Source of the DNA: a virus
Taxonomy: Duplodnaviria; Heunggongvirae; Uroviricota; Caudoviricetes
Virus record (IMG/VR): IMGVR_UViG_2627854282_000001
Location: 1-49,353 of that record
Strand: one strand, 5' to 3'
DNA: 49,353 bases
The notes beneath the pieces were generated by a model, which saw only the letters and a list, made by a program, of their open reading frames with translations, had not been told where the DNA came from and did not search any database. The position numbers were made by a program, and so were the translations under genes. Of the stretch, positions 3,859 to 21,206 are shown in pieces (the first letter of the stretch is position 1; the number at the start of each line of letters is the position of its first letter).

Positions 3859-3910
3859 TTAACCAACTGCTAATAGACCCCTTGCCGGCCGGAATCGCTG
3901 GCTCTATGCT
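3859..3910 (+). promoter_or_regulatory. CtrA-like box plus sigma70-type promoter of tadG-like moron
   Basis: TTAA-ccaactg-CTAA (3859-3873), -35 TTGCCG (3882-3887), 17-nt spacer, -10 TATGCT (3905-3910). Confidence 0.7.
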
Positions 3911-3959
3911 TGGGGGCACGGGGAAATAGTTGCGGCTACAGGGGTAGAGGGGCGCTGCG

Positions 3960-5462
3960 ATGCTTCGCGTCTTGCGGAATTTCTGGAACGATCAGCGCGG
4001 TGTCGCGATGATCCTGGTGGCGATCATGCTGCCGGTGCTGGTCGGCTTCGCGCTGTTGGCGGTCGATATGAGCCGGGCAAATGGGCTCCATGCCGATCTA
4101 CAAAAGGGCGTCGATGCGCTCGCGCTTGCCGGAGCCGCGGAACTCGACGGCAGATCCGACAGCATCACCAGGGCCGATAGGGCGATCAACAATCTCGTCG
4201 CCAACCATACGCTCTTTTCGACCGTCGGCGACCACCAAATTGCCCGAGCCGACATTACGGTGGCGTACTTGACCGGCATCCCCGCCAGCGACAACACAGG
4301 GCTTGGCGCCAACGGCGTCGATGCCAACGGCGTCAATTGGGCGAGCGTGGACCCAACCGCCGTGAGCCTTGTCGTGGTAACCTTGAACGCCTCGAGCGGT
4401 GGCACCTTCGAAAGCTTCTTCCCGGTGAGTTTCACCAGCGGCAACGCCAGTTTCGACATCCGTCCGCAGGCGGTGGCCGGCTTCAGGCAGTCGATCTGCG
4501 AGACCGTCCCGATCTACATGTGCAATCCGTTCGAGACGACGACGCCGGGAACCAGCAAGACGATCCAGCAGGCCTTTGCCTCTGGCGACACCTACGGCCG
4601 CGAGTTCCGCATCCTGAAGGTGGATTCGAATCCTGGCCCAGGCAATTTCGGCCTGATCGACAACAACCTGACGTCGCTACGCGATGCCATCGCGATCGGC
4701 ACCGCAGGCACCTGCTACGGTCGAGATTCGCTCACCACGAAGACCGGCGTTACCCTTGGCCAGGTGAACACCGGACTGAACACCCGCTTTGACCTCTACA
4801 GCGGCTCCCTCAACAAGGATAACAAGGATTGGAACTACCGGCCCGCGAGCAACGTCCGCAAGGGTCAGAAGACGGGCTGCAGCAAATATGATCCGGTGAC
4901 CGATGGGACGGCGCTACCACTGCCGCCCGGGAGCAATTACAACGACTCCAAGGGCATGTCCGACCCGATCACATCGCAAAGCTTCTGGAGCACCTATTGG
5001 TCGGTCAATCATGGGACGACCTATCCTAATGTCCCGAGCGCCAGCAATCCAACCGGCTCCAGAACCGCTCCAGCATCGCGATATGATGTGTATAGATACG
5101 AGATCGCGAACGGCCTCGTCGGAGATAAATCGAAGGCGCCGACAAAGGAAACTGGCAATCCGTCCTGCTTCAAGGGCGATACCCCCACGGCCAGCCCTGA
5201 CCGCCGCTTGCTCAACATGGCGATCGTCGACTGCATCGCCAATCAGTCGAAGATCAATGGCCATATCGCTATCAAGCCCGATGGGTACGCTAGCGTGTTC
5301 GTCAATACGCCGGTTCAGAAGCAGGACAATACCAAGGATCCCGAAGACCCCACGGCAGGCGAGAAGCCAATCAGCCTGGAAATCGTGGATGTCGATGGTG
5401 CTTTCGCCGACAACTTTACTGTCGATAAAGCTTTCCGAAACGAGGCGCAGCTATACCGATGA
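3960..5462 (+). CDS. TadG-like Tad/Flp pilus assembly or tip protein (500 aa)
   Basis: Prepilin-like leader NFWNDQRG|VAMILVAIMLPVLVGFALLAVD, LQKGVDALALAGA Tad-domain signature, Cys-rich C-terminal domain; opposite strand to the phage genes. Confidence 0.88.
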   Translation: MLRVLRNFWNDQRGVAMILVAIMLPVLVGFALLAVDMSRANGLHADLQKGVDALALAGAAELDGRSDSITRADRAINNLVANHTLFSTVGDHQIARADITVAYLTGIPASDNTGLGANGVDANGVNWASVDPTAVSLVVVTLNASSGGTFESFFPVSFTSGNASFDIRPQAVAGFRQSICETVPIYMCNPFETTTPGTSKTIQQAFASGDTYGREFRILKVDSNPGPGNFGLIDNNLTSLRDAIAIGTAGTCYGRDSLTTKTGVTLGQVNTGLNTRFDLYSGSLNKDNKDWNYRPASNVRKGQKTGCSKYDPVTDGTALPLPPGSNYNDSKGMSDPITSQSFWSTYWSVNHGTTYPNVPSASNPTGSRTAPASRYDVYRYEIANGLVGDKSKAPTKETGNPSCFKGDTPTASPDRRLLNMAIVDCIANQSKINGHIAIKPDGYASVFVNTPVQKQDNTKDPEDPTAGEKPISLEIVDVDGAFADNFTVDKAFRNEAQLYR

Positions 5463-5764
5463 GAGCATGCCTGACAATCGCCATGCTATTCCTTTTCGCC
5501 TTTCCAGCTGTCGCCGACGAAATGTCGCTGGTGAACTGCAATATCCTCAGCAACTCGGCGGCCAGCGGCGCGCTGAAACTTCGCCAGGCGATCGGCGAGG
5601 TGAAGGGCGAGGCCCTTCATGAGATGATTCCCGCCCTACCGGAAAGCGCCAAGGACGAGGCAAAGGACGTCGAGGACGCGAGGATTGGCATGGAATCAGC
5701 GATGCGCGAATACATGATCTCGCTCGATGCCTTCTCGAAAGCTGTGAAGGACTGCGGGAACTAA
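5459..5764 (+). CDS. Secreted helical protein coupled to tadG-like gene (101 aa)
   Basis: ATGA overlap with upstream stop; signal peptide ending AVA; two Cys. Confidence 0.75.
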   Translation: MRACLTIAMLFLFAFPAVADEMSLVNCNILSNSAASGALKLRQAIGEVKGEALHEMIPALPESAKDEAKDVEDARIGMESAMREYMISLDAFSKAVKDCGN

Positions 5765-7029
5765 GACCAGACAGTCGAGAGATCCTGCAAGGCTGAATCT
5801 GCCATCGGCGCCCAGACGTGGATGAAGCGGATAGAGCCACCGTTTGTTGTGGTGTCGCCAGGAAGTCCGCCGAAAGCAGCCGCCTCAGCAGTCGCTGTAA
5901 GACTGGTCCCAACCGTCACCAGAGGATCGCCGTTCACCGACATCGAAAGACGCCCGTCAGCGCGCGTCAACGCGATCTGATGAAGATTGGCAAAATGGTG
6001 GTAGCGAGGGTCGGTGACGGTACGGCTGGCCGGCGTCGAGTTGAAATCGCTCGCCTGCATGTTGAGGTTATCGACCTGGGCAAGGCGCCTCAGCGTGATG
6101 CCCTGATCGAGTGCGTTGGTGGCGATCCCGAGGATCGTCGTGACATCGTCGTCGGTATCTTCCGAATAACCGATGAGGATGGTCCAATCCATCGAAGTCA
6201 GCGTGGCGAGGAAATCACCGATGATGCCGATCGGAAAATCGCCATACGGCATCTCCAATCCAAAGGCAGTCAGCGCCCCGGGCGTGTCGACGATATCGGC
6301 CAAAGTGACGGGGCTGCCGGCGACGGAATAGACCTCGTTGATGAAATCGGCCGAGGCAAGCATGCTGCCGGGCAGGCTGTAGGTCGGGCGCGGCGACAAT
6401 GTCGGAAGACTGGCTACGTCCTGAAGATCGAGACGTTCGATGGACCGGATATAGATACTGCGAGCGAGGAAGCTCGAGCCTGGTGCGGCACCGAGTGAGA
6501 GCGCGGTCGCGGTCAGCGCAAAGACATCGGCCGTCGTGCTCTGGGTTGGGTTACCATCGACCGACATCGAAAGCTCCCCATTCGAGCGGGACACCGCGAT
6601 CTTGTGAATGCCGGTGGGAAAGCCTGCGGTATCGGTGACCTGCCGGAAATGGATGCCAGCGGTGTCGCTGGCGTTCATGTAGCCGCTGGTCAACCGGTGA
6701 AGATTGTAGTTGCCGTCACCGGCGTCGGTGTAGACGAATGGGTAGCTGTTGCTGCTGTCGCTGCGTTCGTAATACTCAACGATCACGGTTTGATTGTCAC
6801 CGAGGAAAGCAGCCAAGGCATCGCCGATAACCGAGACGCATGGCGACTCCTCGGTATCGAGAATCTCGAGGCCAGCCGCGGTGACCCATCCGGGCTGATC
6901 AATGACATCGGCCACGGTGACGGAGACGCCGGCGACGGTATAGACGCCATTCTTGAAATCAAGCTTCGTTTGCCCCCCTGGCGCCGGGCTACCTCCGCCG
7001 AAGATGAACGGGTTGAGAAGCCCGGTCAT
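5761..7029 (-). CDS. Putative tail receptor-binding protein with two tandem ConA/LamG-like domains
   Basis: Internal duplication DFKNGVYTVAGVSVTVADVIDQPG / DFINEVYSVAGSPVTLADIVDTPG and HKIAVSRSNGELSMSVDG / HQIALTRADGRLSMSVNG; last gene of tail operon. Confidence 0.7.
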   Translation of the reverse strand: MTGLLNPFIFGGGSPAPGGQTKLDFKNGVYTVAGVSVTVADVIDQPGWVTAAGLEILDTEESPCVSVIGDALAAFLGDNQTVIVEYYERSDSSNSYPFVYTDAGDGNYNLHRLTSGYMNASDTAGIHFRQVTDTAGFPTGIHKIAVSRSNGELSMSVDGNPTQSTTADVFALTATALSLGAAPGSSFLARSIYIRSIERLDLQDVASLPTLSPRPTYSLPGSMLASADFINEVYSVAGSPVTLADIVDTPGALTAFGLEMPYGDFPIGIIGDFLATLTSMDWTILIGYSEDTDDDVTTILGIATNALDQGITLRRLAQVDNLNMQASDFNSTPASRTVTDPRYHHFANLHQIALTRADGRLSMSVNGDPLVTVGTSLTATAEAAAFGGLPGDTTTNGGSIRFIHVWAPMADSALQDLSTVWS

Positions 7030-7793
7030 GCCACACCGAGGAAGACGAGCTTCAGGCCAGCGGCGCCGGCCCCCGCATCATCGATATCGACCGAGACTTC
7101 GGCGTCGTCGGTCATTGCGGTGGTGCTGAGCACCGCTGGCACCGTGGCGGTCGTCGACGTCTTCTCAAGGGCATCGATCGTGAGCCGCGTCGAGAAGATC
7201 GAAACCCCGTTTTGATTGACGTCGACAGTGACGGTCCCACCAGAATCTGAGGCTTCATTGAGTGAAGCCCTGACGCTGGAGAGCGTGAAACCAGTCGGCC
7301 ACCTGAATCTTACTTTCGCGGTTCCGGCGGTGAGCTCGGTGGTCTCATCGCTCACCGCTACAGGATATTGGAATGGCATCGGCGGCGCCGATCCGCTTGC
7401 GCCGGCTGCGGTGCGAACGTTGGTGCCATCCGATTGGAAGCATCCCATATCGCCATTCGCGATTGTCGGTGGCGTCGCAGCCTGCCCAGAAATCCGAATG
7501 GTAACGGTCTGGCCGCACTGATTGAGCACCGTGAAGAGGCCGCGCTGCTCCGCCGGCACATTCAACGTGACCGGACCGCCCGGCGCCGGCGACCCAACAC
7601 CGATCCGGAGGTGCGAACCTTCCCAAAACTGATCCGAGGTGAGATTGACGCTCGTGCCGTCGATGGTGACGTCGACAAAGCCGAAAGCGGCGGACTCAAT
7701 CCGGTCATTGCGGTTGTTGATGGCTGGGATGCCATCAGTCACCTGTCCCTGGGCGACCGGAACCGCCTGGGGGATCTTTTTCTCGATTGTCAT
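7026..7793 (-). CDS. Tail fibre base/adaptor protein (DUF2793-like N-terminus)
   Basis: Position after tip protein; N-terminus AQGQ...INNRNDRIE resembles GTA-type fibre anchors; beta-rich C-terminal domain. Confidence 0.6.
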   Translation of the reverse strand: MTIEKKIPQAVPVAQGQVTDGIPAINNRNDRIESAAFGFVDVTIDGTSVNLTSDQFWEGSHLRIGVGSPAPGGPVTLNVPAEQRGLFTVLNQCGQTVTIRISGQAATPPTIANGDMGCFQSDGTNVRTAAGASGSAPPMPFQYPVAVSDETTELTAGTAKVRFRWPTGFTLSSVRASLNEASDSGGTVTVDVNQNGVSIFSTRLTIDALEKTSTTATVPAVLSTTAMTDDAEVSVDIDDAGAGAAGLKLVFLGVA

Positions 7794-7801
7794 GGATTAC
7801 C

Positions 7802-10800
7802 TCAGAGAGGGATCGTAACCTCAGCGACATGGCCGCGGCCGACCGTCGCCGACATCATGTAGACGCGCGCCTGCGCACTCGGCGGCGGCGAGCCCCAATC
7901 GGCCGACTTCTGCGCCGCCGTATAGGTGAATTGGTTGGTGCCAACGCTGATGGTCCGCAGCACGCCGGTCGGCGAGTCTGCGTCGAGCACGTCCATTTCG
8001 AACGCTAAGGTCGCCTCGCCGCAACTCGGTACCGCATTGAACATCTCCCATGCGGAGAGCCGGTTGCGATAATCGAAGTCGACGATGGTGTCGCCACCGG
8101 AGAGTTGGCCGCACAGATTGACGACCGCATACGGTCTTTCGGCAGCTCCGGCGATCTGGTGCGCCTCAGCAACCGCCGCAGCAATTGAACCGCCGAACCC
8201 GACCGCCTTGTAGTATTTGGTCAGATCGAGATCCGATGGCGGATGGGGCAGCTTTCTCACCCAGTCCTGTCTGACCAGGACGAACAGATCGCCGATTTGA
8301 TGCTGCGGGCCGTAGACCTCCGTGCCGCGCCAGCCGCGCACCGGGAAACCCGAGATCGTGAAGGTGCCGTCGCCATTGTCCACGACGGTCGTGAAGCCAA
8401 GCCCCTCCCAGCGCCCTTCCCTGCCGACGAAGGCGAGGTTGGTGCCGAGCATGACTGCGGACTCCGCGGCCGAGGTCGGCGCTGCCCCTGAAATCCTCTG
8501 GACGATGATGCTGCTTGAGAAGTCGCCAGAATGAGGGTTCGGGTTGTCCGGCAGCACCGTTTTGCAGATGCCGACGAAGGCGGTATGCGGAGCCTGATCG
8601 TACATCACGGCAAAGGTGCTTGCGGTGTCTCCTCGATAGAGAGTGCCGCCTCCCCAGTTCGGCTGGCCGCGGCCGGCAACCATGCCGTATTGGACCAGCG
8701 CGGCGCCGGCGGCGTCGTCACCAAGGCGCAAGAGCGGAATATCGAGATGGATGTATTGCGACTGCAGCGTGACCGAGGTGATGCCGGAGTAGCCAGTGTT
8801 CGATACAACCGCGACATCGGCCGCGAGTGACGTCTGGAAATCCCTGGCCTCGAAATCGATGACCAGGTTTTCCTTGATGTTCACCTTCGAGATCTCGACG
8901 GTGTAGTCGATGTTGCCCGAGGGGACGCTGATGACGTCCCCCGGAATGAGATGAGCGAAATCGGAGAACGTCGAGAAGCTGTGCGTGCGCTCTTTGGCCT
9001 GCTGCCGCAACAGCAGCTCCTGCACATACTGCTCGCCATCGGCATCGGAGAGCACCATAGACGTGGAAAAGTTCATTTCCTTCGTCGACCGGGTGACCTC
9101 ATATAGCGCGCTGTACTCGTCAGCCGTTACAGTTCTCGCCTGATAGTTGTTCTCCTTTGACACATACTCGAAGGTGACCTTGGCAACCCTCGTCAAATCG
9201 CTTTCATCGTCCGACCGGATGGAGCCATTGCTCTTGAAGACGATGTCGGTATCGGCAAGAGATTCATCGGCGACGAACGATCCGTCGGTGGGCGTCTTCC
9301 GGAAGACGATCTCGTCCCCTATGTCCGACCAGACGAACCCCAAGGGATCCTGATAGGTGCGCAGCACCGTGAGGATGCTGGTGTCCTTGTCGATAACGTC
9401 GCCCCAATCGAAGAGCGCGTTGAAGCCTTCGAAGCGGATTTGATCGACGGTGTAAGGGCCCAAATGGGTTAGAAGGTCGGTGACGTGGCTTTGAGTGGTG
9501 ATCTCGCCCGGCGTCGAGCCAGGAATCGTGTATTCAGTCCAAATCTTATTGGTGCTGCTGTACATGAAGTATGCCAGCCGCGCCTGATCGACGAAGACGA
9601 CGCCTGTGGCGTGCTCGTCAAGCTTCGTCGCAGTTTTCGCATTGATGTCAATCGACCAAATCTCTTGGTGATTGTGATCGAAAAGGGCGTAACCAGGGCG
9701 GGGGAACGCTCGCTCCGTCCACAGGGGTCCGGATATATAATCGAGCAGCAACGAGACCGTGAATGTCTCGACGATCGCTCCTGTGGTCGGTGTGATTAAC
9801 CGGACATTGTATGTGCCGGCCGGGAAGGTCTCGAGCACAACGAGGTATTCGGTGAGAGGATCATAATGCATCCCGGTGATCTGTCCGTCCGGGTCGAACA
9901 CCGTGGCCGTCGACCAGCCGTCGCCACCATAGGTGACCTCGTAGACCAGATTGCCGTCGTACATGAAGAAGGATGCGGAATCGGCGGCGACACGCCCGGC
10001 GACCATCGGGATTTCGCCGACTGAGACACTATTCCTCGTGACGCTGAATGAGCCGGCAGTCAGATCGATGACCGCGAAAGCGGTTGGATCGTAGGCAGTA
10101 TCGTAAATATCCGTGCCAGCGAGCAAGAACTGGTCGCCGAATTTGACGCTGGCGAACCAGACAAAGCGTTCATCAGAATTCTCGATGAACTCCGCTACGA
10201 TCGAACCGGTGGTCGCGTTGTAAACGCGGGTCGGAAGAACACCCGTCGGCGCGATATCCAGCCGGGCGAACACGACCACATATCCGGAACCGCGCAAGAC
10301 GGCCAAATAGGGATTCGCATCGACATAGATTTCCGACCCCTCGAGAGGCACTCGGTACTGCTCAACACCGGTGTCGACGTCGAGCGCAACAAGGTAGCAG
10401 ACCGTGAGCGAGGGGATCTCGGCATTCGTCAGGATCTGGTAGAGAATCCCGTCGACGGGGTCATAGCCCGCAAACCGGAACGTGTTCGTGCCAGGACTCG
10501 TCGGCGCCTGACCAACCCATGTCAGCTGCTTCGTTCCACCGGTCTGCGATGCTGCGTTGGAGATCACGGCGGTTATGGTCGGCGCCTGCGCCGCAGGGTA
10601 ATCAGGCAGCACCAGAAGCACGTCACCAGTGTGAGCTCCAGCATTAGCGCCGACGATCTGCTTGACCACCGGATCAACTGCCGTCTGCAGCCCGTTGTAG
10701 AAGCGAAATTGGATCGACGGGATAGCACCATTTTCAGCATCGAAGACGACCTGACCATCCGCCTCGATGCGAATGATGTCGTAGCCTCGGCCGAAATAAT

Positions 10801-11092
10801 CCTTGGCAAGGAGATAAACGACGTCGATTGTGGCAACGCTAGTCGGGTCCGGATAGGTCAGATTGAACTGCGAGCCGATGCGCGTGCCCTGGTAGGTCGT
10901 GGTGACGACCTTTGCCTGGCCGTAGACCGGGATGCCATCGACGCGGCCAGTACCGATGACTGCGGCCTTGGGTCGGCCCAAGGCAGGTGGCGTTACAAGG
11001 CCAGTGCGACGAGTGTAGACGCCGTCGATGCGCGGCGGATCCTTATACAGACTCAGTGTTGCTTTGTGGCCATCATAGATACCGTAGGCCAT
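7802..11092 (-). CDS. Tail tip / host-specificity protein (GTA megatron-like, phage-tail_3 type)
   Basis: 1096 aa after DUF2163; IPVYG N-terminal motif, C-terminal LDIPLLR, WGGGTLYRG, GWRGTE motifs; central beta-propeller-like insert. Confidence 0.8.
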   Translation of the reverse strand: MAYGIYDGHKATLSLYKDPPRIDGVYTRRTGLVTPPALGRPKAAVIGTGRVDGIPVYGQAKVVTTTYQGTRIGSQFNLTYPDPTSVATIDVVYLLAKDYFGRGYDIIRIEADGQVVFDAENGAIPSIQFRFYNGLQTAVDPVVKQIVGANAGAHTGDVLLVLPDYPAAQAPTITAVISNAASQTGGTKQLTWVGQAPTSPGTNTFRFAGYDPVDGILYQILTNAEIPSLTVCYLVALDVDTGVEQYRVPLEGSEIYVDANPYLAVLRGSGYVVVFARLDIAPTGVLPTRVYNATTGSIVAEFIENSDERFVWFASVKFGDQFLLAGTDIYDTAYDPTAFAVIDLTAGSFSVTRNSVSVGEIPMVAGRVAADSASFFMYDGNLVYEVTYGGDGWSTATVFDPDGQITGMHYDPLTEYLVVLETFPAGTYNVRLITPTTGAIVETFTVSLLLDYISGPLWTERAFPRPGYALFDHNHQEIWSIDINAKTATKLDEHATGVVFVDQARLAYFMYSSTNKIWTEYTIPGSTPGEITTQSHVTDLLTHLGPYTVDQIRFEGFNALFDWGDVIDKDTSILTVLRTYQDPLGFVWSDIGDEIVFRKTPTDGSFVADESLADTDIVFKSNGSIRSDDESDLTRVAKVTFEYVSKENNYQARTVTADEYSALYEVTRSTKEMNFSTSMVLSDADGEQYVQELLLRQQAKERTHSFSTFSDFAHLIPGDVISVPSGNIDYTVEISKVNIKENLVIDFEARDFQTSLAADVAVVSNTGYSGITSVTLQSQYIHLDIPLLRLGDDAAGAALVQYGMVAGRGQPNWGGGTLYRGDTASTFAVMYDQAPHTAFVGICKTVLPDNPNPHSGDFSSSIIVQRISGAAPTSAAESAVMLGTNLAFVGREGRWEGLGFTTVVDNGDGTFTISGFPVRGWRGTEVYGPQHQIGDLFVLVRQDWVRKLPHPPSDLDLTKYYKAVGFGGSIAAAVAEAHQIAGAAERPYAVVNLCGQLSGGDTIVDFDYRNRLSAWEMFNAVPSCGEATLAFEMDVLDADSPTGVLRTISVGTNQFTYTAAQKSADWGSPPPSAQARVYMMSATVGRGHVAEVTIPL

Positions 11093-11133
11093 TTACGAGC
11101 GTACCTCGTCAAACATCCGGGAGCCCTCGCACC

Positions 11134-11988
11134 TCACTTCAGCCCCCCGTAGAGCTCGCCTGGCGTATGGTCGTAGCCCGAGAAGTTGTTCTTCCGGCCA
11201 TTAGCAACGCAGACGGGTCGCGTCCGCGCGCAGCCACCATGCATGACGAAGGTGTCCCCGACTTCGACGTCGAGAGAGAAGCCTTCGGCGAGCTCGACAA
11301 GATGCGATCCGCTCGTCCATTTGCGGATCCTGCGGCTGTCGCCGATATTGGCGCCGGAGGTGAATTTGATCGCACCACCGAAATTGAAGTCGATGTTGGT
11401 CGGGTTCGAAATCGTGACAGTGAATTTTCCGTTGGTGGTGACCGTGGCGACAACGCCGGACAACTCACGCGTCGACAGATCAAAACCGCATTCCCGCGAC
11501 CCGAAGACGTGGTTGCATTTCGGCTGGATCTTATCGAGGACGATGTCGCCGAGCTGCTCGCCCTTCGTCGCGAATTCCAGAGTTCCAGCGATGCTGTCGG
11601 AAAAGGATGATTTCCCGACAAACCCGGTCGCCATGACTTGGCGGTAGTCAGGATTGTCGATGTCGCCGAGATAGAGGATTGCGGTGGCCTTGCGCCAAAC
11701 CCCTCGTTTCACATGCTCGGCATAGATCGGCCCCTGTTCATCGATCGGGACGGTGATGTCGACAGTCGCAGGGAATCCGTCCAGCGAGTAAGTCACGCTG
11801 GTCATGTTGAAACCGGGATCGCCCAGGAAAATCTCGGCAGGGCTGCCAGCAGTCGCCACCATCTCGCCAGACGATGAGAGGCGCACGACCTGGCCTATGC
11901 GGCTGGTCACCTCGATCAGCCATACCGGCGTGATCGTCCCGCCCTCAAGCATGGTCAGCAGAGGGATGGGGAAGGTAGATCTTGGCAT
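11134..11988 (-). CDS. Baseplate hub protein, DUF2163/BR0599 family
   Basis: QPKCNHVFGSRECG and GGCARTRPVC...NNFSGY Cys motifs. Confidence 0.88.
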   Translation of the reverse strand: MPRSTFPIPLLTMLEGGTITPVWLIEVTSRIGQVVRLSSSGEMVATAGSPAEIFLGDPGFNMTSVTYSLDGFPATVDITVPIDEQGPIYAEHVKRGVWRKATAILYLGDIDNPDYRQVMATGFVGKSSFSDSIAGTLEFATKGEQLGDIVLDKIQPKCNHVFGSRECGFDLSTRELSGVVATVTTNGKFTVTISNPTNIDFNFGGAIKFTSGANIGDSRRIRKWTSGSHLVELAEGFSLDVEVGDTFVMHGGCARTRPVCVANGRKNNFSGYDHTPGELYGGLK

Positions 11989-11989
11989 T

Positions 11990-12589: not shown

Positions 12590-15500
12590 GCGACAGAACT
12601 GCTCATTGCGCCATAGACGGTCCGAACGAACTCATACGCGGCCTGGCGGCCAGCTTGGGCGCCATCAGTGACGCCGTTGATGTTGATGTCTCCGACCACG
12701 ATGTTCCCGATGGTGGCCTGCCCAGGAGCTGGCTGCGGCCCCAGCTTGATCGTCGGCCGTTTGAGGACGCCGATGCCCCAGCTGGATATGTAACTGCCGT
12801 GCTGAGGATCCCATGCGTCGCCGAACATGTGCGATTCTTTGGAAATGTTGCCGGTGTTCAGACCGCCATCCGGGCGCCACGCGTATGGATCGTTGCCGTT
12901 CTGACCCATTGCGGAAGTACCCTGCCAAAGGTCGTACATCCCGACGTCCAGCGCGCCGATAGTGCCCGCGACGTTCGCGAGACCGCCGGTGACACTTCGA
13001 TTCATGTCGTCGACGCTAGTGCCGACATCCTTGGTCGCTGACGTCGTCTGGTCCTGTCCGTATCGGGTGACGTTGACGCCGTTTTCCAGCTGCCGGACGA
13101 CCGCGCCGGTCCCATTGTCACCGCCGCCGGCGCCGCTGCTGAAACGGGTCACCGACACGCCGCCGGCATCAGGATAGGTGGTGCGCGTTCCGGTCGCCCC
13201 GGCTCTCTGCACAACCGGGTTGGCCTGGAAGGTGTTAATCGCCCCAGTCAGCCTGGCGATCCAGAAAAGAGCGTCCTCGATTCCTTTGATGAAGCCGTCG
13301 AGCGCATCTGAATTCGCGCCGAGCTTCTTCAGTTCGTCGCGAATCTTGGCGATACCGTCGGCGAGCTTGTAGGCGGGCAAGCGTCCAGCGAGGAATTTGT
13401 CGACCAGAGCCTGCAGGCGCGCTTCGATGGCGCCGTACTCCTGATTTAGCCCACCGATCTCCAGCGCTTGACCGAACATGCGCTCGCGGCCGGTCGCAAA
13501 GGCTGTGGCGAGATCGGTCTGCGCAAGCTTGAGGCGGATAGTGGTCGCTTCAACATCGGCCTGCCGCTGCCGGATCTCGTCATAGGCGCTGGCGACATTC
13601 GCGAACTTGGATTGGACAAGGTCCTTGCTTTCCGCGTTTTCCAGCGCTGTGGAGACGTGTTCGAGAATGTCGAGTTCACGCGTCGAGGCGGCAATCGCAT
13701 CAGCGCCGGCCCTCACCCTCTGGCGAACCGCATCGGTGATCCTGATGTTCTGGCCGGCGATCTTGGCGAGAAGATCGTCCTCGATCGCGAGGCGATTCTG
13801 CTCATCGCCAATGAGACCGCGCCGCTCCAGTATCTCCTTGTTGGCCTTTACCTGACCCTGGATAAGGTCGTTGATCGCCGCCAGCTGCGAGGCGGTTGCC
13901 TCCGGCTTGTCGAAGTTGATGTTTGGCGCAATCTGCTTCGCAGTCGCCAGCAGCCGGGCAAACTCGCCGCTGGTTGCCTCCGTGGACCGGAGCCACGCCT
14001 CCGATTTGCTATTGATGGTATCCAGCACGGTGTTGACGATGGCGACGTCCCTGGCCTCGCCCTCGAGAAGATCCTTGTTGTCCTTCATCACGGCGGCGGT
14101 GCCCTGCCGGATCTTCGACTCGAGATCGGTCTGCTCGTTGATCTGCTTAATGCTGAAAAGCAGCCCCTGCGCGGTCTTCTGCGACTGCTTCAGGTTTGTC
14201 TCATAGATTTCCAGGGCGTCGGCCGATGCGGCGGCCACCTTGTTGATCTGGTTCTCGACGTCGAGACTGCCGACGCCGCTCTTCAGCGAGGCGTTGAGCT
14301 GTTCCGCGGAGGCCGCCGACTTGTTGAGCGCGAGCTGGAGCTTGCCCTCTTCCGCGACGGCCGCGGCGATATTATCGAGTTCATGGTCGCTGACGAACTG
14401 GGCTTCCGGGATTGCCCGGATTTCCTTGTTGATGTCGGCAAACGCAAGAGTGCCCTCCGCGACCCTGTTGACGACCGACTGCACGCCGGCGGTCATCTTG
14501 TTGAACAGATCGACGAAATCGCTGCGGTTTTCGAGCTTCGGATTGGTGAACGCATCGAAAGCGTTCGTCAGGGCTTCATTGATCTTTGTGGCCTGCTCCT
14601 CGACCCCTGCCCTGAAAAGGGTAATATCGCCTTCGGTGGCGGCGAGCTTACCCTTGATCTCTTCCGACCTAAGGCTGGTTTCCGCAGCCTGCCCAGTTTG
14701 GCCACCGGCATCCGCGATCGACCCAAGTACATCGTGCAGCGCCTTCCTGGTATTCTCCTGCTGCTGCGCCGCCTCAGCCGATCTGATGCCCATGAGGGTA
14801 AGCAGCGAAATCGCACCAGTGAACGCGACACCCCATGGGCCGCCGAGGAAGCCAACCAGGCTGCTGGCGCCGGTCTTCAAAAGACCGAACGATTGCCGCA
14901 GCACGCTGGTGTTCTTTGTGGCGAGAGAAAGTGAGGTCGCTGTGGTCTCCAGGCTGGTGCGAAGACCGTCGAGCTCTGCCTGCGCGGCGCGCAGCTCGGC
15001 GCCTTTCGCAAGCGAGCCGACTTCCCCGATCGCCGCGCGGGCACGCCCCAGCCTTTGCGTCTGGTCGAACTCCTCGACCTGAAGACGGGCGGTCTCCTTC
15101 GCTTGCGCTCTGGCGACCTGCTGGTACTTCGACCGGGTTTCGGCGGCTTGCGCCTCGGCGGCGCCAACCCGTTCCGCAAGCGCGATTCGCTGGTTGCCGA
15201 GCTGCTCCTCGAGCGCGCCCTGCTTCAACGCTTCACTGGACTGCTGCTGCCGGATGCGAGTGATGTCGCGTTCCGCCTCCTTCACAGCGCCGATGTTGCC
15301 GATGTTGATCGCCTGCTGCCCAGATGCCGCGGTCAGCCGGGTCTGCGCCTTGGCGAGCTCGTTCGCGAGCGATACCTGCCGGCTTTGGCTGGCCTCGATC
15401 TTGCCCTGGGTCTCGACGATCTTGTCGGCCGCGGCCAGGGTCTGCTTGGTCCCCTTCACCTCGACCGAGTTGGCGGCGTCGATCGCGTTGCGCAGCTTCT

Positions 15501-16749
15501 CGGTTGTCGCCAGCCGGCTTTCCCGAATCTTGTTGAGCTTCGCCTCTTCGCGCTGGACGATCTTGAGGTCCGACTTTGACGCGAATTCCAAGTTGTCCCG
15601 CCCCTGCAGATTGGCGAACGCCCTGGTGCTCTGCTCAAGCTGAGATGAAAGATCGCCTTGCGCCTTCGTAAGCTTTTCGACCTGGTCCTTGGCATCGGCA
15701 GACCGTCTCGAGATTTCGCCGAAGGTGGCGTCGACGGCCTTGCCGACGCTGCTGCCGACGAGCCGGCCAGCAAAAGCCGAACCAAGGGCCAGGCCTAAGG
15801 TGGCGGCGCTGCCGGCAACCTTGTCGATATTGTTGGCGAACAGCAGGATGCCGCCGGAAACGATCCGGGTGAGACCATACGTCTTGTCGAGACCTCCGAC
15901 GAATTTCGTGAGCTGGTTGTCGGCCTTGACAAGGGATTGGTCGATGGTGAGAACCGACTTGTTGAAATCGGCATCGACACTGGCCTTGATCTTGTCGAGA
16001 GCGCCGAGGACTCTATCCGCGGTCAGCTGGCCGGTGATGCTGAGCTGCCGCAGCTTGCCGATGGTGACGTCGAGGCCCTTCGCGAGCTGCAGACCAAGCG
16101 GGGTTTCCAGCACGGCGCGGAATTCGTCGCCGCCCAGCCGATTCGAAGCGATCGCCTGCGAGAACTGGATGGCGGCCGATGTGGCTTCCTGAGCCGTGGC
16201 GCCGCCCAGAGCAAGCGCTTTCTGGATGGTCTGGACGTACTCGAGCACGGTGCTGCCCGATGTCGATGGCGCCGCCTTCTGCAAGCGAGAGTACAGCACA
16301 GCGGTCGAGGTAAGGGAGGCACGGCTGTTGTCGGCAGCCGCGGCAACGCCGGCAAGATTCCCAGCAAGGTCGGCGGCATCATCGGAGACGACGCGGATCT
16401 GGTTTGAGAGATTGTTGTAGGTGTCCGCGTACCGGAGCACCAAGTTCGACGACAGCGCCGCGGTCAGGCCGCCGAAAACGGCCGTCGTCGCCAGCATGGT
16501 GCCGCGCAGCAGGCCGACGCGGTCGTTGACGCGCTCGAAGGCGCGCGAAACAGCGATCAGACCATACGGCCTGATGCCGCTATCCGCGCTCCTGGAGAAT
16601 CGCTCGATCGAGGACTGCGCAAGACCAGCTTCCTTGCGCACGCTGGCGGCGCCGCGCGCCGTGATGCGGTCAGCAAGAGCCCAGCCGGCGGCATAGCCGC
16701 CGGTGTCCATCGTCAACGATGCATAGATGGAACCGATTGGCTCAGCCAT
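12586..16749 (-). CDS. Tape measure protein (1387 aa)
   Basis: Tape-measure domain (ADTYNNLSNQIR...AAIQFSQAIASNRLGGDEFRAVLE), long Ala-rich helical repeats. Confidence 0.95.
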   Translation of the reverse strand: MAEPIGSIYASLTMDTGGYAAGWALADRITARGAASVRKEAGLAQSSIERFSRSADSGIRPYGLIAVSRAFERVNDRVGLLRGTMLATTAVFGGLTAALSSNLVLRYADTYNNLSNQIRVVSDDAADLAGNLAGVAAAADNSRASLTSTAVLYSRLQKAAPSTSGSTVLEYVQTIQKALALGGATAQEATSAAIQFSQAIASNRLGGDEFRAVLETPLGLQLAKGLDVTIGKLRQLSITGQLTADRVLGALDKIKASVDADFNKSVLTIDQSLVKADNQLTKFVGGLDKTYGLTRIVSGGILLFANNIDKVAGSAATLGLALGSAFAGRLVGSSVGKAVDATFGEISRRSADAKDQVEKLTKAQGDLSSQLEQSTRAFANLQGRDNLEFASKSDLKIVQREEAKLNKIRESRLATTEKLRNAIDAANSVEVKGTKQTLAAADKIVETQGKIEASQSRQVSLANELAKAQTRLTAASGQQAINIGNIGAVKEAERDITRIRQQQSSEALKQGALEEQLGNQRIALAERVGAAEAQAAETRSKYQQVARAQAKETARLQVEEFDQTQRLGRARAAIGEVGSLAKGAELRAAQAELDGLRTSLETTATSLSLATKNTSVLRQSFGLLKTGASSLVGFLGGPWGVAFTGAISLLTLMGIRSAEAAQQQENTRKALHDVLGSIADAGGQTGQAAETSLRSEEIKGKLAATEGDITLFRAGVEEQATKINEALTNAFDAFTNPKLENRSDFVDLFNKMTAGVQSVVNRVAEGTLAFADINKEIRAIPEAQFVSDHELDNIAAAVAEEGKLQLALNKSAASAEQLNASLKSGVGSLDVENQINKVAAASADALEIYETNLKQSQKTAQGLLFSIKQINEQTDLESKIRQGTAAVMKDNKDLLEGEARDVAIVNTVLDTINSKSEAWLRSTEATSGEFARLLATAKQIAPNINFDKPEATASQLAAINDLIQGQVKANKEILERRGLIGDEQNRLAIEDDLLAKIAGQNIRITDAVRQRVRAGADAIAASTRELDILEHVSTALENAESKDLVQSKFANVASAYDEIRQRQADVEATTIRLKLAQTDLATAFATGRERMFGQALEIGGLNQEYGAIEARLQALVDKFLAGRLPAYKLADGIAKIRDELKKLGANSDALDGFIKGIEDALFWIARLTGAINTFQANPVVQRAGATGTRTTYPDAGGVSVTRFSSGAGGGDNGTGAVVRQLENGVNVTRYGQDQTTSATKDVGTSVDDMNRSVTGGLANVAGTIGALDVGMYDLWQGTSAMGQNGNDPYAWRPDGGLNTGNISKESHMFGDAWDPQHGSYISSWGIGVLKRPTIKLGPQPAPGQATIGNIVVGDININGVTDGAQAGRQAAYEFVRTVYGAMSSSVA

Positions 16750-17014
16750 TTTTGCCTATGCGTTTCTGATCGGAGGCTGCTTTGCGAAGCTGCTTTTTCT
16801 GCTGCTCCATGAAGAGCCGCATGCGCCGGTACATCTGGTCCGGCGTTTGCAGTCGCTGCGGATCGTCCCAAAGCTCCGACGACTTGTCGGGCAATCGCCT
16901 GGCCCGCTGCAGGCGCGCGTTGAAGTAGGCTTGCTCGACACGACCTTGCCAGGCAGGGCCGAGCCAGGTGCCGACTTCATGCGGGGTCAGTTCGAAGAAT
17001 TGATGCGGGAACAT
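16742..17014 (-). CDS. Tail assembly chaperone C-terminal (T) segment of the G-T frameshift product
   Basis: PHQFFELTPHEV motif; open in the -1 frame from the slippery site at 17077. Confidence 0.85.
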   Translation of the reverse strand: MFPHQFFELTPHEVGTWLGPAWQGRVEQAYFNARLQRARRLPDKSSELWDDPQRLQTPDQMYRRMRLFMEQQKKQLRKAASDQKRIGKNG

Positions 17015-17046
17015 GCCCGCCCGGTAGGCACTCTTTTGCAGTTCAG

Positions 17047-17436
17047 TTAGGAGCTCGCCGGGCTCGATTGGTTTCCCGAGTCATCATTCACCTCGAGCTT
17101 CCTGACGTTCTCGAGATAGTCGAGATGACCCTCAAAGGTGCGGCCATGCATTGCCAAGAACAGCGCATCCAGGATCGCGTTTGCAGTGACGACCTGCGGG
17201 CAGTCGAGATCATCGTATGCGATGCGAAACGGCTTGCCGTCCTTCTTGCCGCCGAAGGCGATGCATTCGCGCATGAACTTCGGGTCAAAGCGGTTCAGGC
17301 GCGGCACGCAGTCGGCGAAATAGTTGTCGCCGAATTTCGCCTGAAGATTGTCGAGATCGGGATTGGTGAAGCGGAGATAGACCCCCTCCCCGCCGTCCGG
17401 GAAGGGGACTTGTCCGCGGAGACGCACTTCTGACAA
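17047..17436 (-). CDS. Tail assembly chaperone (gpG-like)
   Basis: Between tube and TMP genes; ends with in-frame G GGA AAC slippery heptamer. Confidence 0.88.
   Translation of the reverse strand: MSEVRLRGQVPFPDGGEGVYLRFTNPDLDNLQAKFGDNYFADCVPRLNRFDPKFMRECIAFGGKKDGKPFRIAYDDLDCPQVVTANAILDALFLAMHGRTFEGHLDYLENVRKLEVNDDSGNQSSPASS
17071..17077 (-). other. Programmed -1 frameshift site GGGAAAC
   Basis: X XXY YYZ in correct phase (TCG GGA AAC); -1 frame reads GKPIEPGELLTELQKSAYRAGMFPHQ without a stop into the 16742-17014 ORF. Confidence 0.9.
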
Positions 17437-17448
17437 CGACGCCTCCTA

Positions 17449-17898
17449 TTAAGCCGACGGGCCTTCTTCGATCTGACCCGACACGCGGATCGTCACTTCG
17501 AAATTGATCGGATCCTCACCGGTGAAGGTGAAATCTCCGCCGGAGACGTAGCCGAAGCCGTACAGCATGTAATTGAAGCCGGCGCCGCTCATGTCGATCT
17601 GCCAGTTGAAGGTGGCGCCGGAGTTGAGCTTCGCCTCGAGGCCGGTCGTACCGTTGAGCGTGGCGTCGCTTGGGTTGTAGTGGCAGGTGATCTTGATCTC
17701 GCCCGGATCCTTGAAGCCCGGCCGGAACTCGCGGAAGCCGCCGGTCGAAGCGAGATGGGTGAAGTCGACCTCTTCGACCGAGCGGCCGGAAAGGTTGATG
17801 GCGGTGACGTTCACGACGGGCGTGAACGCTTCCGGCGATTCGCCGTCTCCGACCTTGAACTTGGTGCCAAGGCCGACTTTACCAGTGGACGCAACCAT
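17449..17898 (-). CDS. Major tail tube protein
   Basis: SVEEVDFTHLASTGGFREFRPGFKDPGEI motif typical of siphovirus tubes. Confidence 0.92.
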   Translation of the reverse strand: MVASTGKVGLGTKFKVGDGESPEAFTPVVNVTAINLSGRSVEEVDFTHLASTGGFREFRPGFKDPGEIKITCHYNPSDATLNGTTGLEAKLNSGATFNWQIDMSGAGFNYMLYGFGYVSGGDFTFTGEDPINFEVTIRVSGQIEEGPSA

Positions 17899-17911
17899 GG
17901 TGCGGGTTCTC

Positions 17912-18169
17912 CTATTTCAGTTTGGGTTTGCGACAGGCTTTCCGGGCCGCCGCGGCGTCCTCGGAGACGAGCGTATCCACCCCGCACTCCCGGCATTTCC
18001 AGCACGGCAGTCCGCTCCACTTGGTCTCGATCATCGAGCACTCGCGGGGGGCAGAAACGACTGAGGCCGCCTCGGGGGCGGCCTCAGATTTTGCGATTTC
18101 AGTTGCTGGCGACGACACGTCAGCTCGCACCGGACTCCTCGTCCGGCGCGCAGGGCGCCTTGCGGGCAT
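17912..18169 (-). CDS. Small basic protein with CWKCREC motif (85 aa)
   Basis: Strong SD AAGGAGG; fills the gap before the tube gene. Confidence 0.7.
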   Translation of the reverse strand: MPARRPARRTRSPVRADVSSPATEIAKSEAAPEAASVVSAPRECSMIETKWSGLPCWKCRECGVDTLVSEDAAAARKACRKPKLK

Positions 18170-18187
18170 GGCTGCCTCCTTACGCGC

Positions 18188-18685
18188 CTATCGACGGCGC
18201 ACGATGCTGTTGGTCAGTCGCAACCAGGCGCGGCGCCGCAGCGTGGCGATGACCTCGCCATGCTTGGAATCGAAGGCTGGCCGGAAGAATGGATGGGCGC
18301 GAGAGCCCGGATGGAAGAATCCGCCGCGAAAATTCTTCTGAAAGTGCGGTGCGGTCCCGAACTCGAGCAGGTGGACGATGGTTCTGGCGCGCCTCTTGAA
18401 CGACACCCACCAGGTGCGACGTTTCGCTGTGCCCGAGACCTTCACCGACACCACGTTTTCATCGACATGGCCGCCCGGCGGTGAGCCGCTTGGCTGCGGG
18501 AAGAAGTCTGGATATTTGCCAGCGAAGTTGCGCAGTGCGGCCGCATTGCGCTCGGTCTCGCGCCGCATCGGCTCCAACGCGGCTTCCATATCCTCGTCCA
18601 TGGCGCGGCCGTCATAGATGCCGGCGGCACGGCGCATGTTGGCGCGCAGCTGCACGTCGCCGGTCAGCTTAAAGCCCTTAGCCAT
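18188..18685 (-). CDS. HK97 gp10-like tail completion protein
   Basis: Start MAKGF at 18685; HLLEFGT and HPFFRPAFD motifs. Confidence 0.88.
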   Translation of the reverse strand: MAKGFKLTGDVQLRANMRRAAGIYDGRAMDEDMEAALEPMRRETERNAAALRNFAGKYPDFFPQPSGSPPGGHVDENVVSVKVSGTAKRRTWWVSFKRRARTIVHLLEFGTAPHFQKNFRGGFFHPGSRAHPFFRPAFDSKHGEVIATLRRRAWLRLTNSIVRRR

Positions 18686-18686
18686 G

Positions 18687-19091
18687 TCAGGCTGCCTTTT
18701 TCCAGCGGATGAAGAAGTCCACCGTCCAGACATAGACGGAGCGATCGTCCGCCTTTGCGGTCCGCTCGAAATTTGCAAAGGAGGTGGAGATGTCGACGAA
18801 ACCGCCGATCGCGAGGTTCTTGTTGTCCTGGAGCGCACCCATGACGGCGTTGCGAAGCTGTTCGGCACCGAGGGCGGTTTCCGCCAGGCAATTGACGGTC
18901 ACGCGGTTCCGATAATATTGTCCGGCGCCGTCGAGCATTGACTCGTCGAAGCCGCTGACGATGTTCACCTCGACGCAGGGCAACTGCGCGCGTTGCGGAA
19001 GGTCGATTGGATAGATGCCTTCCGAGCTGACGATGTCTGTGACGGCCGCCTCGCTGCCGAGCCGGGCGATCGCAATGGTGAGCGCCGACAT
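18687..19091 (-). CDS. Tail terminator (DUF3168-like)
   Basis: IYPIDLPQ...LPCV, R.TVNCLA, final VDFFIRW pattern. Confidence 0.8.
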   Translation of the reverse strand: MSALTIAIARLGSEAAVTDIVSSEGIYPIDLPQRAQLPCVEVNIVSGFDESMLDGAGQYYRNRVTVNCLAETALGAEQLRNAVMGALQDNKNLAIGGFVDISTSFANFERTAKADDRSVYVWTVDFFIRWKKAA

Positions 19092-19438
19092 CAGGCGTTC
19101 CGGATCAGCGTCGGCTTGATGGTGACGGCACCGGTGACCACAGTAGCGACCGATCCGGCAAAGCTGACGCCTTCGGCTTCGTGGTAGTAGACCCCTCCCT
19201 TGAAGCCGTCAGTGTCGGCAGCGCTAATCGTGACCTCGAACTCACCATTGCTTGGGTCTGTCAGCTGGATGCCCGATCCTGTCGCTTTCGAGACCAGGGG
19301 CGAGCTCTTGACATTCTTCGCGAGCCGCCATCGAAACGTCCAGCCGGTGATGTCGACCAAGGCGTTGTTTTCGTCTCGCACGATGACGAGAACGATCTTT
19401 GTATCGCCGGCATACATCTCGAAATCGGTAACCGCCAT
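19091..19438 (-). CDS. BppU-N-like virion adaptor protein
   Basis: GDT.IV.V..RDEN...VDITG, I..TDPSNGEFEVTISAADT, YYHEAE pattern. Confidence 0.65.
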   Translation of the reverse strand: MAVTDFEMYAGDTKIVLVIVRDENNALVDITGWTFRWRLAKNVKSSPLVSKATGSGIQLTDPSNGEFEVTISAADTDGFKGGVYYHEAEGVSFAGSVATVVTGAVTIKPTLIRNA

Positions 19439-19439
19439 G

Positions 19440-19961
19440 TCATTGGATCCTTCTCACGACGCGCCCGTCGAGATGGATGCGAGAAGTGGCAGACCCGGTC
19501 AGCTCGATCGTGCCGGCGAGCAGACCGTCCAGGACGATCCTGGCCAGCGTCTCGATTTCGATACCTGCAGCTTCATCATCCAGGAGCAGCAGCAAAGCAT
19601 CTGCGACGGCGAACGCTGCCCGGATAGCAGCGGAGCCGGCGATCGCCGGCTCAAGACTGTCGGAGGCACGCACTGTTGCCGCTACAGTGGCGGTCGAATC
19701 TAGACGAAATGGCAATGCGTCCTGGCAGTGCAGCCGCCCCAGCAATTCGTCGATGGCGTCGTCTCCAAGAACAGAAAGGATATCCGCCCGTCCTAGCAGC
19801 GCCGAGACGGCCGACGTCTCCGATAAAAGCGCGTCGACGTCATCCGAAAGAGCAAGTGTTGACCGGGCATCCCTGTTCTCAGCGAACGCCATTTCCAGGC
19901 TGTCTGACGCAGATACGTCGACTTGCGTCGGGCCTCCTGCAAATAGAAGTAGAAGGCTCAT
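19440..19961 (-). CDS. Putative fibre protein with short D/A/L repeats
   Basis: MSLLLLFAGG start, quasi-periodic ASDSL/LSDDV/RADIL/VADAL units; coupled to neighbours. Confidence 0.6.
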   Translation of the reverse strand: MSLLLLFAGGPTQVDVSASDSLEMAFAENRDARSTLALSDDVDALLSETSAVSALLGRADILSVLGDDAIDELLGRLHCQDALPFRLDSTATVAATVRASDSLEPAIAGSAAIRAAFAVADALLLLLDDEAAGIEIETLARIVLDGLLAGTIELTGSATSRIHLDGRVVRRIQ

Positions 19962-20347
19962 TACGAACCGATGTTGACTGTGATGTCGATGGTGATGAGC
20001 CAGCTCTGCGCTGAGGTCTTCGTGCCCAGCGACTCAACCTTGCGGCTCAACATCACTCCAGCCGTCGGGTCGTTGAAGATCCCCCATTCTTCCCAAGCGA
20101 AGTTGCCGTCTGATGTGCCGTAGAGAGATTGGAAGGTCAGAACGTTGTTCGCTCGCTGTGGATAGCCTGACTCCATGCCCATTCGCAGCTTGTTTGATGC
20201 CGCCTGGAGATCGGTTTGACCGACATCAAAGGCGGTGGAGGAGTCCCCTGCGCCAATGAAGGTGCCAGCCTCATCGAAGAAGGCCGGTGGGCCGTCGTTC
20301 ATAATTGCGGCAGCGATGAAGTTGCGGCCTGCATTGGTCATCGGCAT
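19961..20347 (-). CDS. Conserved phage structural protein (fibre/collar-base-like)
   Basis: GDSSTAF...QTDLQ, GNFAWEEWGIFN, MLSRKV motifs. Confidence 0.7.
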   Translation of the reverse strand: MPMTNAGRNFIAAAIMNDGPPAFFDEAGTFIGAGDSSTAFDVGQTDLQAASNKLRMGMESGYPQRANNVLTFQSLYGTSDGNFAWEEWGIFNDPTAGVMLSRKVESLGTKTSAQSWLITIDITVNIGS

Positions 20348-20360
20348 AGCGGTATCCCCT

Positions 20361-20579
20361 TTAAAGCGTATCGACGCCTTCGATCACCTCGACGGGCCGC
20401 TTGTTGGTCGCGAACTCACCATCGAATTTCTGGAGCCGCCAAGCGATACCGACAGAAATATTCAACCCCTCGCGCCGGCCATCATCAGCCTCTGCGAGGC
20501 GGGCCCGTATTTCGGCCGCCTTTTGCGGGTCCGACAATTCGATCAGCGCCGCAATCCGTTCAAGATCAGTGCGGTCCAT
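20361..20579 (-). CDS. Hypothetical protein (72 aa)
   Basis: SD GAGTAGAAG before ATG; co-oriented with the structural operon. Confidence 0.55.
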   Translation of the reverse strand: MDRTDLERIAALIELSDPQKAAEIRARLAEADDGRREGLNISVGIAWRLQKFDGEFATNKRPVEVIEGVDTL

Positions 20580-20750
20580 CTTCTACTCTCGAAAGGATGG
20601 AGTTTATACTCCGATATATTGTGGACGACGGGCGACAGACCCTTTATCCGGTCCAGCCTCAGCCTGTTGGCGATACGGTTAACCGGCCGGATTTCAGCGA
20701 AGATTCAGCAACTTATCGGCGCGCAACTATCGGCTCCGAGTAGATCGCGG

Positions 20751-20802
20751 TTAATGAATTGCTAATTTTCCTTTGACTCCAAGAGCCTGGCAGGAACAGG
20801 AT
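20751..20802 (+). promoter_or_regulatory. CtrA-like box plus -35 element of flp pilin moron
   Basis: TTAA-tgaattg-CTAA (20751-20765), -35 TTGACT (20773-20778), weak -10 CAGGAT (20797-20802); extra TTAACC half-site at 20679. Confidence 0.65.
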
Positions 20803-20871
20803 CGCTTTCGGGACCAGGGGGATGAGCTCGAAAGCACCTCTGTCCGGGTATTGGGTAACAGGGGAATTCAA

Positions 20872-21172: not shown

Positions 21173-21206
21173 AAGGGTCGGCGTCCTCGCGCCGGCCCTT
21201 TTTCTT
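21173..21206 (+). terminator. Intrinsic terminator of flp
   Basis: AAGGGTCGGCG-tcctcg-CGCCGGCCCTT then TTTCTT. Confidence 0.8.

Follow-up and report, generated by a model that had tools for sequence, protein, structure and literature searches.

Why should two genes for pilus subunits, carried at separate places in the genome of a temperate phage, both be preceded by a short sequence one base removed from the site of CtrA, the master cell-cycle regulator of the host? The question is raised by a stretch of 49,353 nt of DNA (positions 1 to 49,353 of IMG/VR record IMGVR_UViG_2627854282_000001; hereafter, the window), which is part of a siphovirus prophage of Mesorhizobium with a tail like that of a gene transfer agent. 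The tail genes in the window give Pfam matches to Phage-tail_3/Rcc01698_C, BR0599 and DUF2460, and a holin-like/lysozyme gene is also present; the close homologues of the TadG-like protein are all from Mesorhizobium, and the 113-kb parent record is classed as a provirus. BLAST comparisons with phage and plasmid collections returned either a lysozyme match only or nothing. The two pilus genes, one encoding a TadG/TadE-like protein and the other a Flp-type pilin, lie between the tail and lysis genes on the strand opposite to the late genes, and have the character of morons: their promoters are their own and conserved, they are transcribed against their surroundings and their presence is variable, with a terminator of its own found for the flp unit only.

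On the evidence of the sequences, the best reading is that host CtrA controls both morons, and we consider it probable. The prophage would have captured two genes of the host Tad/Flp locus, each becoming an independent unit whose weak promoter is of the sigma-70 type; binding of the box by the host's CtrA, as a phosphorylated dimer, would help RNA polymerase, and the products of both units (TadG-like protein with its 101-aa partner, and Flp) would be made at the stage of the cell cycle at which CtrA activates flp in the host. The pilus parts of the phage would then probably be switched on together with those of the host. Binding by CtrA, an activating rather than a repressing effect, and timing by the cell cycle are the parts of this scheme that we infer. 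A regulator resembling CtrA but borne by the phage was rejected as a candidate, because no OmpR-family DNA-binding protein was found to be encoded in the record.

Table 1. Positions in the window of the two boxes and the features associated with them.
Feature	Position	Strand	Remarks
Box 1, TTAACCAACTGCTAA	3859..3873	+	CtrA-type site, TTAA-N7-CTAA
Box 2, TTAATGAATTGCTAA	20751..20765	+	CtrA-type site, TTAA-N7-CTAA
Predicted promoter of TadG-like moron	3882..3910	+	-35 TTGCCG 3882-3887, 17-nt spacer, -10 TATGCT 3905-3910
Predicted promoter of flp moron	20773..20802	+	-35 TTGACT 20773-20778, 17-nt spacer, -10 ACAGGAT 20796-20802
Conserved start of 5' leader, GCACGGGGAAATAGTTGCGGC	3916..3936	+	Invariant blocks GCACGGGGAAA and TGCGGC
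TadG/TadE-like protein, 500 aa	3960..5462	+	Pfam Tad PF13400
101-aa ORF, overlapping the TadG-like stop	5459..5764	+	Signal-peptide-like N terminus; second moron gene
Flp-type pilin, 70 aa	20872..21084	+	G/AAMVEY prepilin motif in translation
Intrinsic terminator closing flp moron	21174..21206	+	10-bp GC-rich stem then T run
Divergent holin-like/lysozyme gene	3053..3823	-	Pfam Phage_lysozyme, DUF7940; GGAGA ribosome-binding site, ATG at 3823

The earlier note on this DNA, made from the sequence alone, had located both 16-mers correctly: each is found on the plus strand as TTAA-N7-CTAA, and in both the second half-site begins with C in place of T, such that seven of the eight positions of the core TTAA-N7-TTAA agree in each box. 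Measured against the extended form used by the host, TTAAC-N5-GTTAA, box 1 agrees at nine of ten positions; the C at position 5 and the G at position 11 of the phage boxes match the flanks of the host motif, and only the replacement of T12 by C deviates from it. The C at position 5 is kept in the phage boxes, but is T in the window's own box 2, the relatives of which have C. The promoter elements previously assigned to the TadG-like moron proved right and are all kept in relatives, as did the -35 hexamer of the flp moron, to which the -10 element ACAGGAT, homologous to the native CTAGGAT, can now be added. The further claim that both morons have the same geometry holds in that each box lies just upstream of a -35 hexamer, but the gap is only approximately the same, being 8 nt at box 1 and 7 nt at box 2 (relatives have 7-9 nt, native promoters 5-6 nt).

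Transcription of the TadG-like moron is predicted to begin at around 3917-3918 and that of the flp moron at around 20808, placing the box centres near -51 and -50 respectively. The boxes span approximately -58 to -44 relative to these predicted starts, and hence lie beside the -35 hexamer and not over it, as at native flp. Such a placement resembles that of the promoter-proximal sites of OmpR-family activators. Both promoters fall below the threshold of a promoter scan based on the Escherichia coli consensus, despite being conserved in relatives; that of the TadG-like moron is accordingly classed as weak on this sequence criterion, and the weak -10 elements at both would fit a dependence on an activator. 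Reading the CTAAT half-site as the -10 element of an alternative promoter works at the window's box 1 only, and the arrangement is not conserved.

The number of boxes is unremarkable. Exactly two sites within one mismatch of TTAA-N7-TTAA occur in the 113-kb record, these being boxes 1 and 2, whereas first-order Markov simulations expect 3.6 +/- 2.1, and spacings of N5 to N9 yield between zero and three; count-based enrichment was consequently rejected as proof of function. A 16-mer pattern derived from the boxes is expected to have 0.16 chance matches when up to two mismatches are allowed, although this test is circular. The rarity of TTAA remarked upon in the earlier note is real (14 occurrences in the window and 20 in the record) but compositional, with ratios of observed to expected, calculated from trinucleotides, of 0.75-1.15; avoidance of TTAA by the phage was rejected for this reason. 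Of the 20 TTAA sites, only those of boxes 1 and 2 continue as N7-[CT]TAA, which bears out the observation, originally made on a partial check, that the others lack a similar box. Within the window alone the case is one of three coincidences, in that the boxes agree in mismatch, in orientation and in lying upstream of a -35 hexamer at the only two Tad genes. What lends the boxes weight is where they lie, that they are conserved and which sites the host itself uses, rather than how many there are.

Related prophages provide the evidence of conservation. Relatives of the box 1 region were found in IMG/VR (L001 and L002/3), M. argentiipisi (L006), M. silamurunense (L209) and the genome of a further species (L232), the last of which, together with two other box 1 loci, was retrieved by a search pattern made up of the -10 element and leader only, without the box. 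Including that of the window, the six box 1 promoters keep TTAACC-N4-GCTAA, the -35 hexamer and the -10 element, in the order box, CTTGC[CT], variable spacer, TATGCTT and conserved leader; this holds even where the TadG-like proteins are only 48% identical. In an alignment of five relatives, 11 of the 15 columns of the box are invariant, as against one of the 30 columns upstream. The five box 2 promoters (those of the window and of L004/L005, L211, L216 and L214) keep GTTAA-N6-GCTAA, followed after 7 nt by TTGACT. The same T-to-C change is found in all 11 boxes of the phage type, giving GTTAAC-N5-GCTAA as the consensus of the phage lineage, and by these alignments the phage boxes are conserved footprints. 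A scan of viral contigs with a loose -35/-10 pattern gave 118 stretches, which were discarded as chance matches except where they fell on contigs already known.

An explanation by chance resemblance between two AT-rich intergenic stretches would sit easily with the count, since a record of 113 kb should by chance contain as many one-mismatch sites. It must, however, also accommodate the sharing of mismatch, orientation and distance to the -35 hexamer, the restriction to two Tad genes and the retention of the boxes in eleven related promoters; this conservation effectively refutes it as judged from the sequences, and we regard it as exceedingly improbable.

Conservation also extends into the leader of the TadG-like moron, the first 20 or so nucleotides of which are invariant in six prophages despite protein divergence to 48% identity. 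The blocks GCACGGGGAAA and TGCGGC are invariant in the five aligned relatives, and are also present in the sixth locus, L232. One possibility for this part of the leader is an operator, another an RNA element.

The two boxes do not always travel together. The proposal that the two genes form one regulon is plausible for the prophage in the window, but the pairing is not fixed: two essentially complete relatives, one a provirus of 96% completeness and the other a complete phage with terminal repeats, have box 1 and the TadG-like moron only. In one relative (L214; G114:C115:30052-33069), the same cassette of box and TTGACT, with an identical 18-mer, stands before an unrelated small membrane protein gene, indicating that the promoter behaves as a portable module. 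Another contig (G025:C16) carries two Flp-like genes 3.3 kb apart (L211 and L216), each with a GTTAA-N6-GCTAA box and a TTGACT -35 hexamer.

The host's own tad locus has the gene order flp, cpaB, cpaC, lipoprotein, TadG-like, TadE, TadE, cpaE. Upstream of flp, 33 native Mesorhizobium loci have TTAA-N7-TTAA, a gap of 5-6 nt, and then TTGACT-N17-CTAGGAT, and the phage flp promoter and leader can be aligned with this native promoter region; the phage version thus resembles that of the rhizobia in having a box just upstream of the same TTGACT, a 17-nt spacer, an AGGAT-type -10 element and a homologous leader and gene, but differs in that its box is always TTAA-N7-CTAA, at a gap of 7-9 nt, and never the canonical form. 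The simplest view suggested by this homology is that box 2 arrived together with the captured promoter. The native TadG-like gene, by contrast, is internal to its operon, without a promoter or box of its own, unlike the phage copy; box 1 therefore appears to have been installed, rather than inherited with the gene. The native flp leader, of around 95 nt, is itself almost invariant across 33 species (L007-L055, at about 2400-2830 of each locus) and includes a GGATG...CATCC hairpin, which suggests post-transcriptional control of pilin synthesis.

Such an origin raises the question of whether the boxes are passive relics with no present function, box 2 having come with the captured flp promoter and box 1 by descent from the same cassette. 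The homology of phage and native flp promoters and leaders would agree with this, as would the occurrence of nearly the same 17-mer in the two classes of box (L209 compared with L214). Yet box, -35 and -10 are invariant where TadG has diverged to 48% identity and the neighbouring columns are scrambled, and the installation of box 1 before a gene that natively has no promoter of its own is hard to reconcile with mere descent. We consider this explanation quite improbable.

The likely form of the host's CtrA sites can be read from the complete chromosome of Mesorhizobium sp. WSM4083, in which TTAA-Nx-TTAA peaks at N7, mostly as TTAAC-N5-GTTAA; the first 2.5 Mb has 17 TTAA-N7-TTAA sites, against two to five for each other spacing. 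The canonical sites sampled are intergenic, and precede minC, DUF1465, outer-membrane beta-barrel protein genes and flp. In Sinorhizobium meliloti, pilA1 is a direct target of CtrA by ChIP-seq and a lacZ fusion, and minCD is directly repressed (PMC4433202), hence the host N7 sites before minC and flp match the rhizobial CtrA regulon. The CtrA motif of S. meliloti is GTTAACC-N5-TTWAMCAT (PMC4914127), and pilin genes are direct CtrA targets both there (PMC4433202) and in Caulobacter (PMC11264516).

The CTAA variant is also found in the host chromosome, where G occupies position 11 in 9 of 17 TTAA-N7-CTAA sites. One variant site is found 73 nt upstream of eipA and others upstream of genes with a pilus N-terminal domain, a Tad domain and DUF2336, and several recur at apparently the same loci in two other species. 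Binding of such variants has been published: at the hemE Ps promoter of Caulobacter a TTAA-N7-CTAA site was footprinted with CtrA (PMC11264516), in Brucella the eipA site TAAA-N7-CTAA was bound by CtrA in an electrophoretic mobility shift assay (10.1101/442541), and in a one-hybrid assay with S. meliloti CtrA the half-site change T1C left binding unaltered (PMC4914127). The phage boxes thus share with hemE Ps and the B. abortus eipA site, at which CtrA binding is experimental, a second half-site that opens with C instead of T, although organisms and promoter positions are different, and the Caulobacter hemE site overlaps the -10 element and represses. The canonical box at the same place in native flp promoters, the conserved footprints, the variant at host promoters of the CtrA regulon and the published binding together lend support to the description of the phage boxes as CtrA-like. 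One host chromosomal box (L221 position 2522; G001:C1:3178521) has its first 15 bases identical to those of the flp box of L004; it lies around 2.3 kb from the canonical box before minC, with no pilus gene downstream. A 499-aa ORF beside it was considered as a possible TadG and discarded, being unrelated to TadG and having no Pfam match.

Several observations weigh against control by CtrA. The near-consensus sites in the record are not above chance in number, and TTAA-N7-CTAA is not clearly enriched in the host, with six sites against five and five for other spacings. Within the phage lineage there is no variation at G11, at C12 or over much of the spacer (AATTG); position 12 of the native flp boxes, by contrast, is T throughout, and their position 11 varies. 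The invariance in the phage boxes could reflect a somewhat different specificity. The T at position 5 of the window's box 2 corresponds to the change C5T, which lowered binding of S. meliloti CtrA in the one-hybrid assay (PMC4914127). The boxes lie upstream of the -35 hexamer, whilst a position over it is common in Caulobacter and S. meliloti, and the upstream CtrA sites at Caulobacter pilA delay or repress expression (PMC11264516), such that the sign of regulation at the phage boxes is something that we infer. Lastly, the RNA evidence consists of assembled contigs from a single study, which show neither starts nor levels.

The same invariance would be accounted for were the boxes operators of another protein, whether a phage regulator or a further factor of the host, to which GTTAAC-N5-GCTAA would be an imperfect inverted repeat; the likeness to CtrA sites would then be a partial overlap. 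All 11 phage boxes keep G11-C12 and a similar AATT-rich spacer, in contrast to the 33 native flp boxes, and direct reading of the half-sites TTAAC and GCTAA shows that they form a dyad matching at four of five positions. However, C5 and G11 are also preferred in canonical host sites, so the conservation needs no second protein; no further copy of the box occurs in the 113-kb record, for instance at an immunity region, and the record has no OmpR-family gene to supply such a regulator. Furthermore, host genomes that lack this phage have the same variant upstream of their eipA and pilus genes. We therefore hold a different binding protein to be unlikely, if deserving of some weight.

A second alternative grants binding by CtrA but supposes that it represses or delays transcription, or that box 1 mainly controls the divergent lysis genes, either by acting on them itself or because transcription of the moron interferes with late read-through. 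The start of the lysis gene at 3823 is indeed 36 bp from box 1, as previously noted, and in four relatives the corresponding distance is 23-36 nt; the box stands upstream of a separate -35 hexamer, where CtrA sites are inhibitory at Caulobacter pilA (PMC11264516), and for other phages of alphaproteobacteria a 'lytic deferment' linked to CtrA has been put forward (PMC9437464). Against this, the poor -10 elements of both promoters, which leave them under the consensus-scan threshold, fit dependence on an activator, the sequence between box and lysis start is not conserved, no leftward -35/-10 can be placed around the box, and the unit that is conserved, comprising box, promoter, leader and gene, points rightwards. 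The suggestion that box 1 gates lysis accordingly finds no support, and in the 36 bp concerned no leftward promoter is recognisable: a promoter for the lysis gene using the box was sought by reading the minus strand, and gave no acceptable -35/-10 pair. It is more likely that the lysis genes depend on read-through from the late operon, and repression or control of lysis by box 1 seems unlikely enough to be given little weight.

Returning to activation by host CtrA, a more specific version can be envisaged, in which a temperate lineage has built the fixed variant GTTAAC-N5-GCTAA, never the host's canonical flp form, into a portable promoter cassette, wiring pilus subunits, and in one relative a small membrane protein, to a particular threshold of phosphorylated CtrA or window of the cell cycle; transcription of the morons antisense to the late operon would additionally couple lysis read-through to the cell cycle. 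This is a speculative extension, which we think unlikely in its full form. If it were true, the Tad pilus of the host would take up the phage-made pilin and tip protein just as it is assembled, and the result might be, for example, a block to superinfection through the pilus or a change in adhesion.

The cargo of both morons resembles the host's own proteins. The TadG-like protein of the window is 62-88% identical to products of the native Mesorhizobium tad-locus gene, with 86% identity to one native protein, and the gene is, as judged by these similarities, one captured from the tad locus of its host. In a tree, the phage copies are scattered over several positions within the native ones, which suggests repeated capture or exchange. 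A solitary TadG paralogue (L017) represents a third context, neither phage nor tad locus, and was set aside as it has a long upstream region and no box. The 101-aa ORF is kept after the TadG-like gene in L002, L003, L006 and L209, and is absent in L001; its C-terminal half is conserved, and it is unrelated to the lipoprotein, also of 101 aa, that precedes native TadG. No terminator was found after the TadG unit.

The phage Flp is 48-65% identical to native Mesorhizobium Flp and has an intact ESG/AAMVEY motif followed by a hydrophobic stretch, although Pfam Flp_Fap scores it at 19 bits, below the cutoff of 32 bits. The terminator closing this moron folds with -30.2 kcal/mol (z = -4.66), yet was not listed by a consensus scan. 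In the closest flp-carrying relative (L004 6050-7202), the flp moron occupies the slot between tail fibre and lysis genes that in the window holds the TadG-like moron, so this junction appears to be a recurrent insertion slot. Just past the flp terminator, a promoter-like site ATGGCA-18-TATATT is present on the plus strand at 21234-21263.

Both morons are covered by contigs assembled from two RNA-seq libraries, which match the window at 100% identity. The TadG-like gene is represented in contigs of both libraries, some of which span its junction with the 101-aa ORF, and the flp gene in a contig of one. The contigs of runs X1 and X2 have their first bases at 3931/3932 and at 20820, some 12-14 nt past the predicted starts, although contig ends are no evidence of start sites. 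The lysis genes have little contig cover, but uncovered parts are no evidence of silence. Further contigs of the RNA libraries lie over 21246-22024, overlapping the 3' end of a 639-aa gene on the minus strand.

Control of phage genes by CtrA has already been published (PMC9437464), and CtrA control of pilin genes is well established. In phiCbK, vB_BsubS-Delta and the Mesorhizobium phage Cp1R7A-A1, binding to CtrA sites and CtrA-dependent expression have been shown, including activation of a promoter of the Mesorhizobium phage (PMC9437464). The prophage described here has in common with them host CtrA-type sites in phage promoter regions. In those pilus- and flagellum-targeting phages, however, the sites form dense clusters in early or intergenic regions and are proposed to time lysis (PMC9437464), whereas here two single sites in a temperate prophage each precede a pilus moron of the lysogenic-conversion type. 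A homologue of another cell-cycle protein, GcrA, is encoded elsewhere in the record, outside the window (G000:C1:87032-87544, minus strand; Pfam GcrA, 104 bits), and phiCbK has one too; this homologue is a second link of the phage to the host cell-cycle circuit.

Caulobacter pilA likewise offers a pilin gene with non-consensus sites, its four CtrA sites deviating from the consensus and hence making it sensitive to the level of CtrA; there, the activating site overlaps the -35 element and extra upstream sites delay expression (PMC11264516), unlike the single site upstream of an intact -35 hexamer found here. As independent units on the opposite strand, in a tail-fibre/lysis slot and variable among relatives, the phage genes are similar to morons such as lambda bor and lom (PMC3594210), from which they differ in carrying two pilus subunits derived from the host and in having, in their promoters, a site of the type used by a host cell-cycle regulator. 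A non-exhaustive search of the literature found no described temperate prophage with a fixed CTAA box variant before captured Tad-pilus genes.

If CtrA does drive these promoters, the prophage would be using the master cell-cycle regulator of its host to time accessory genes for a surface organelle, rather than lytic genes. The two short promoters, each one base off the host's own site, form a compact and testable system, which bears on how temperate phages tune captured host genes and on whether phage Flp and TadG alter rhizobial Tad pili. The recurrence of CTAA half-sites before eipA and pilus genes of Mesorhizobium, conserved across species, points to these as a form of the CtrA box that is used by the host. 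Tad pili matter to rhizobia for attachment, and possibly as phage receptors.

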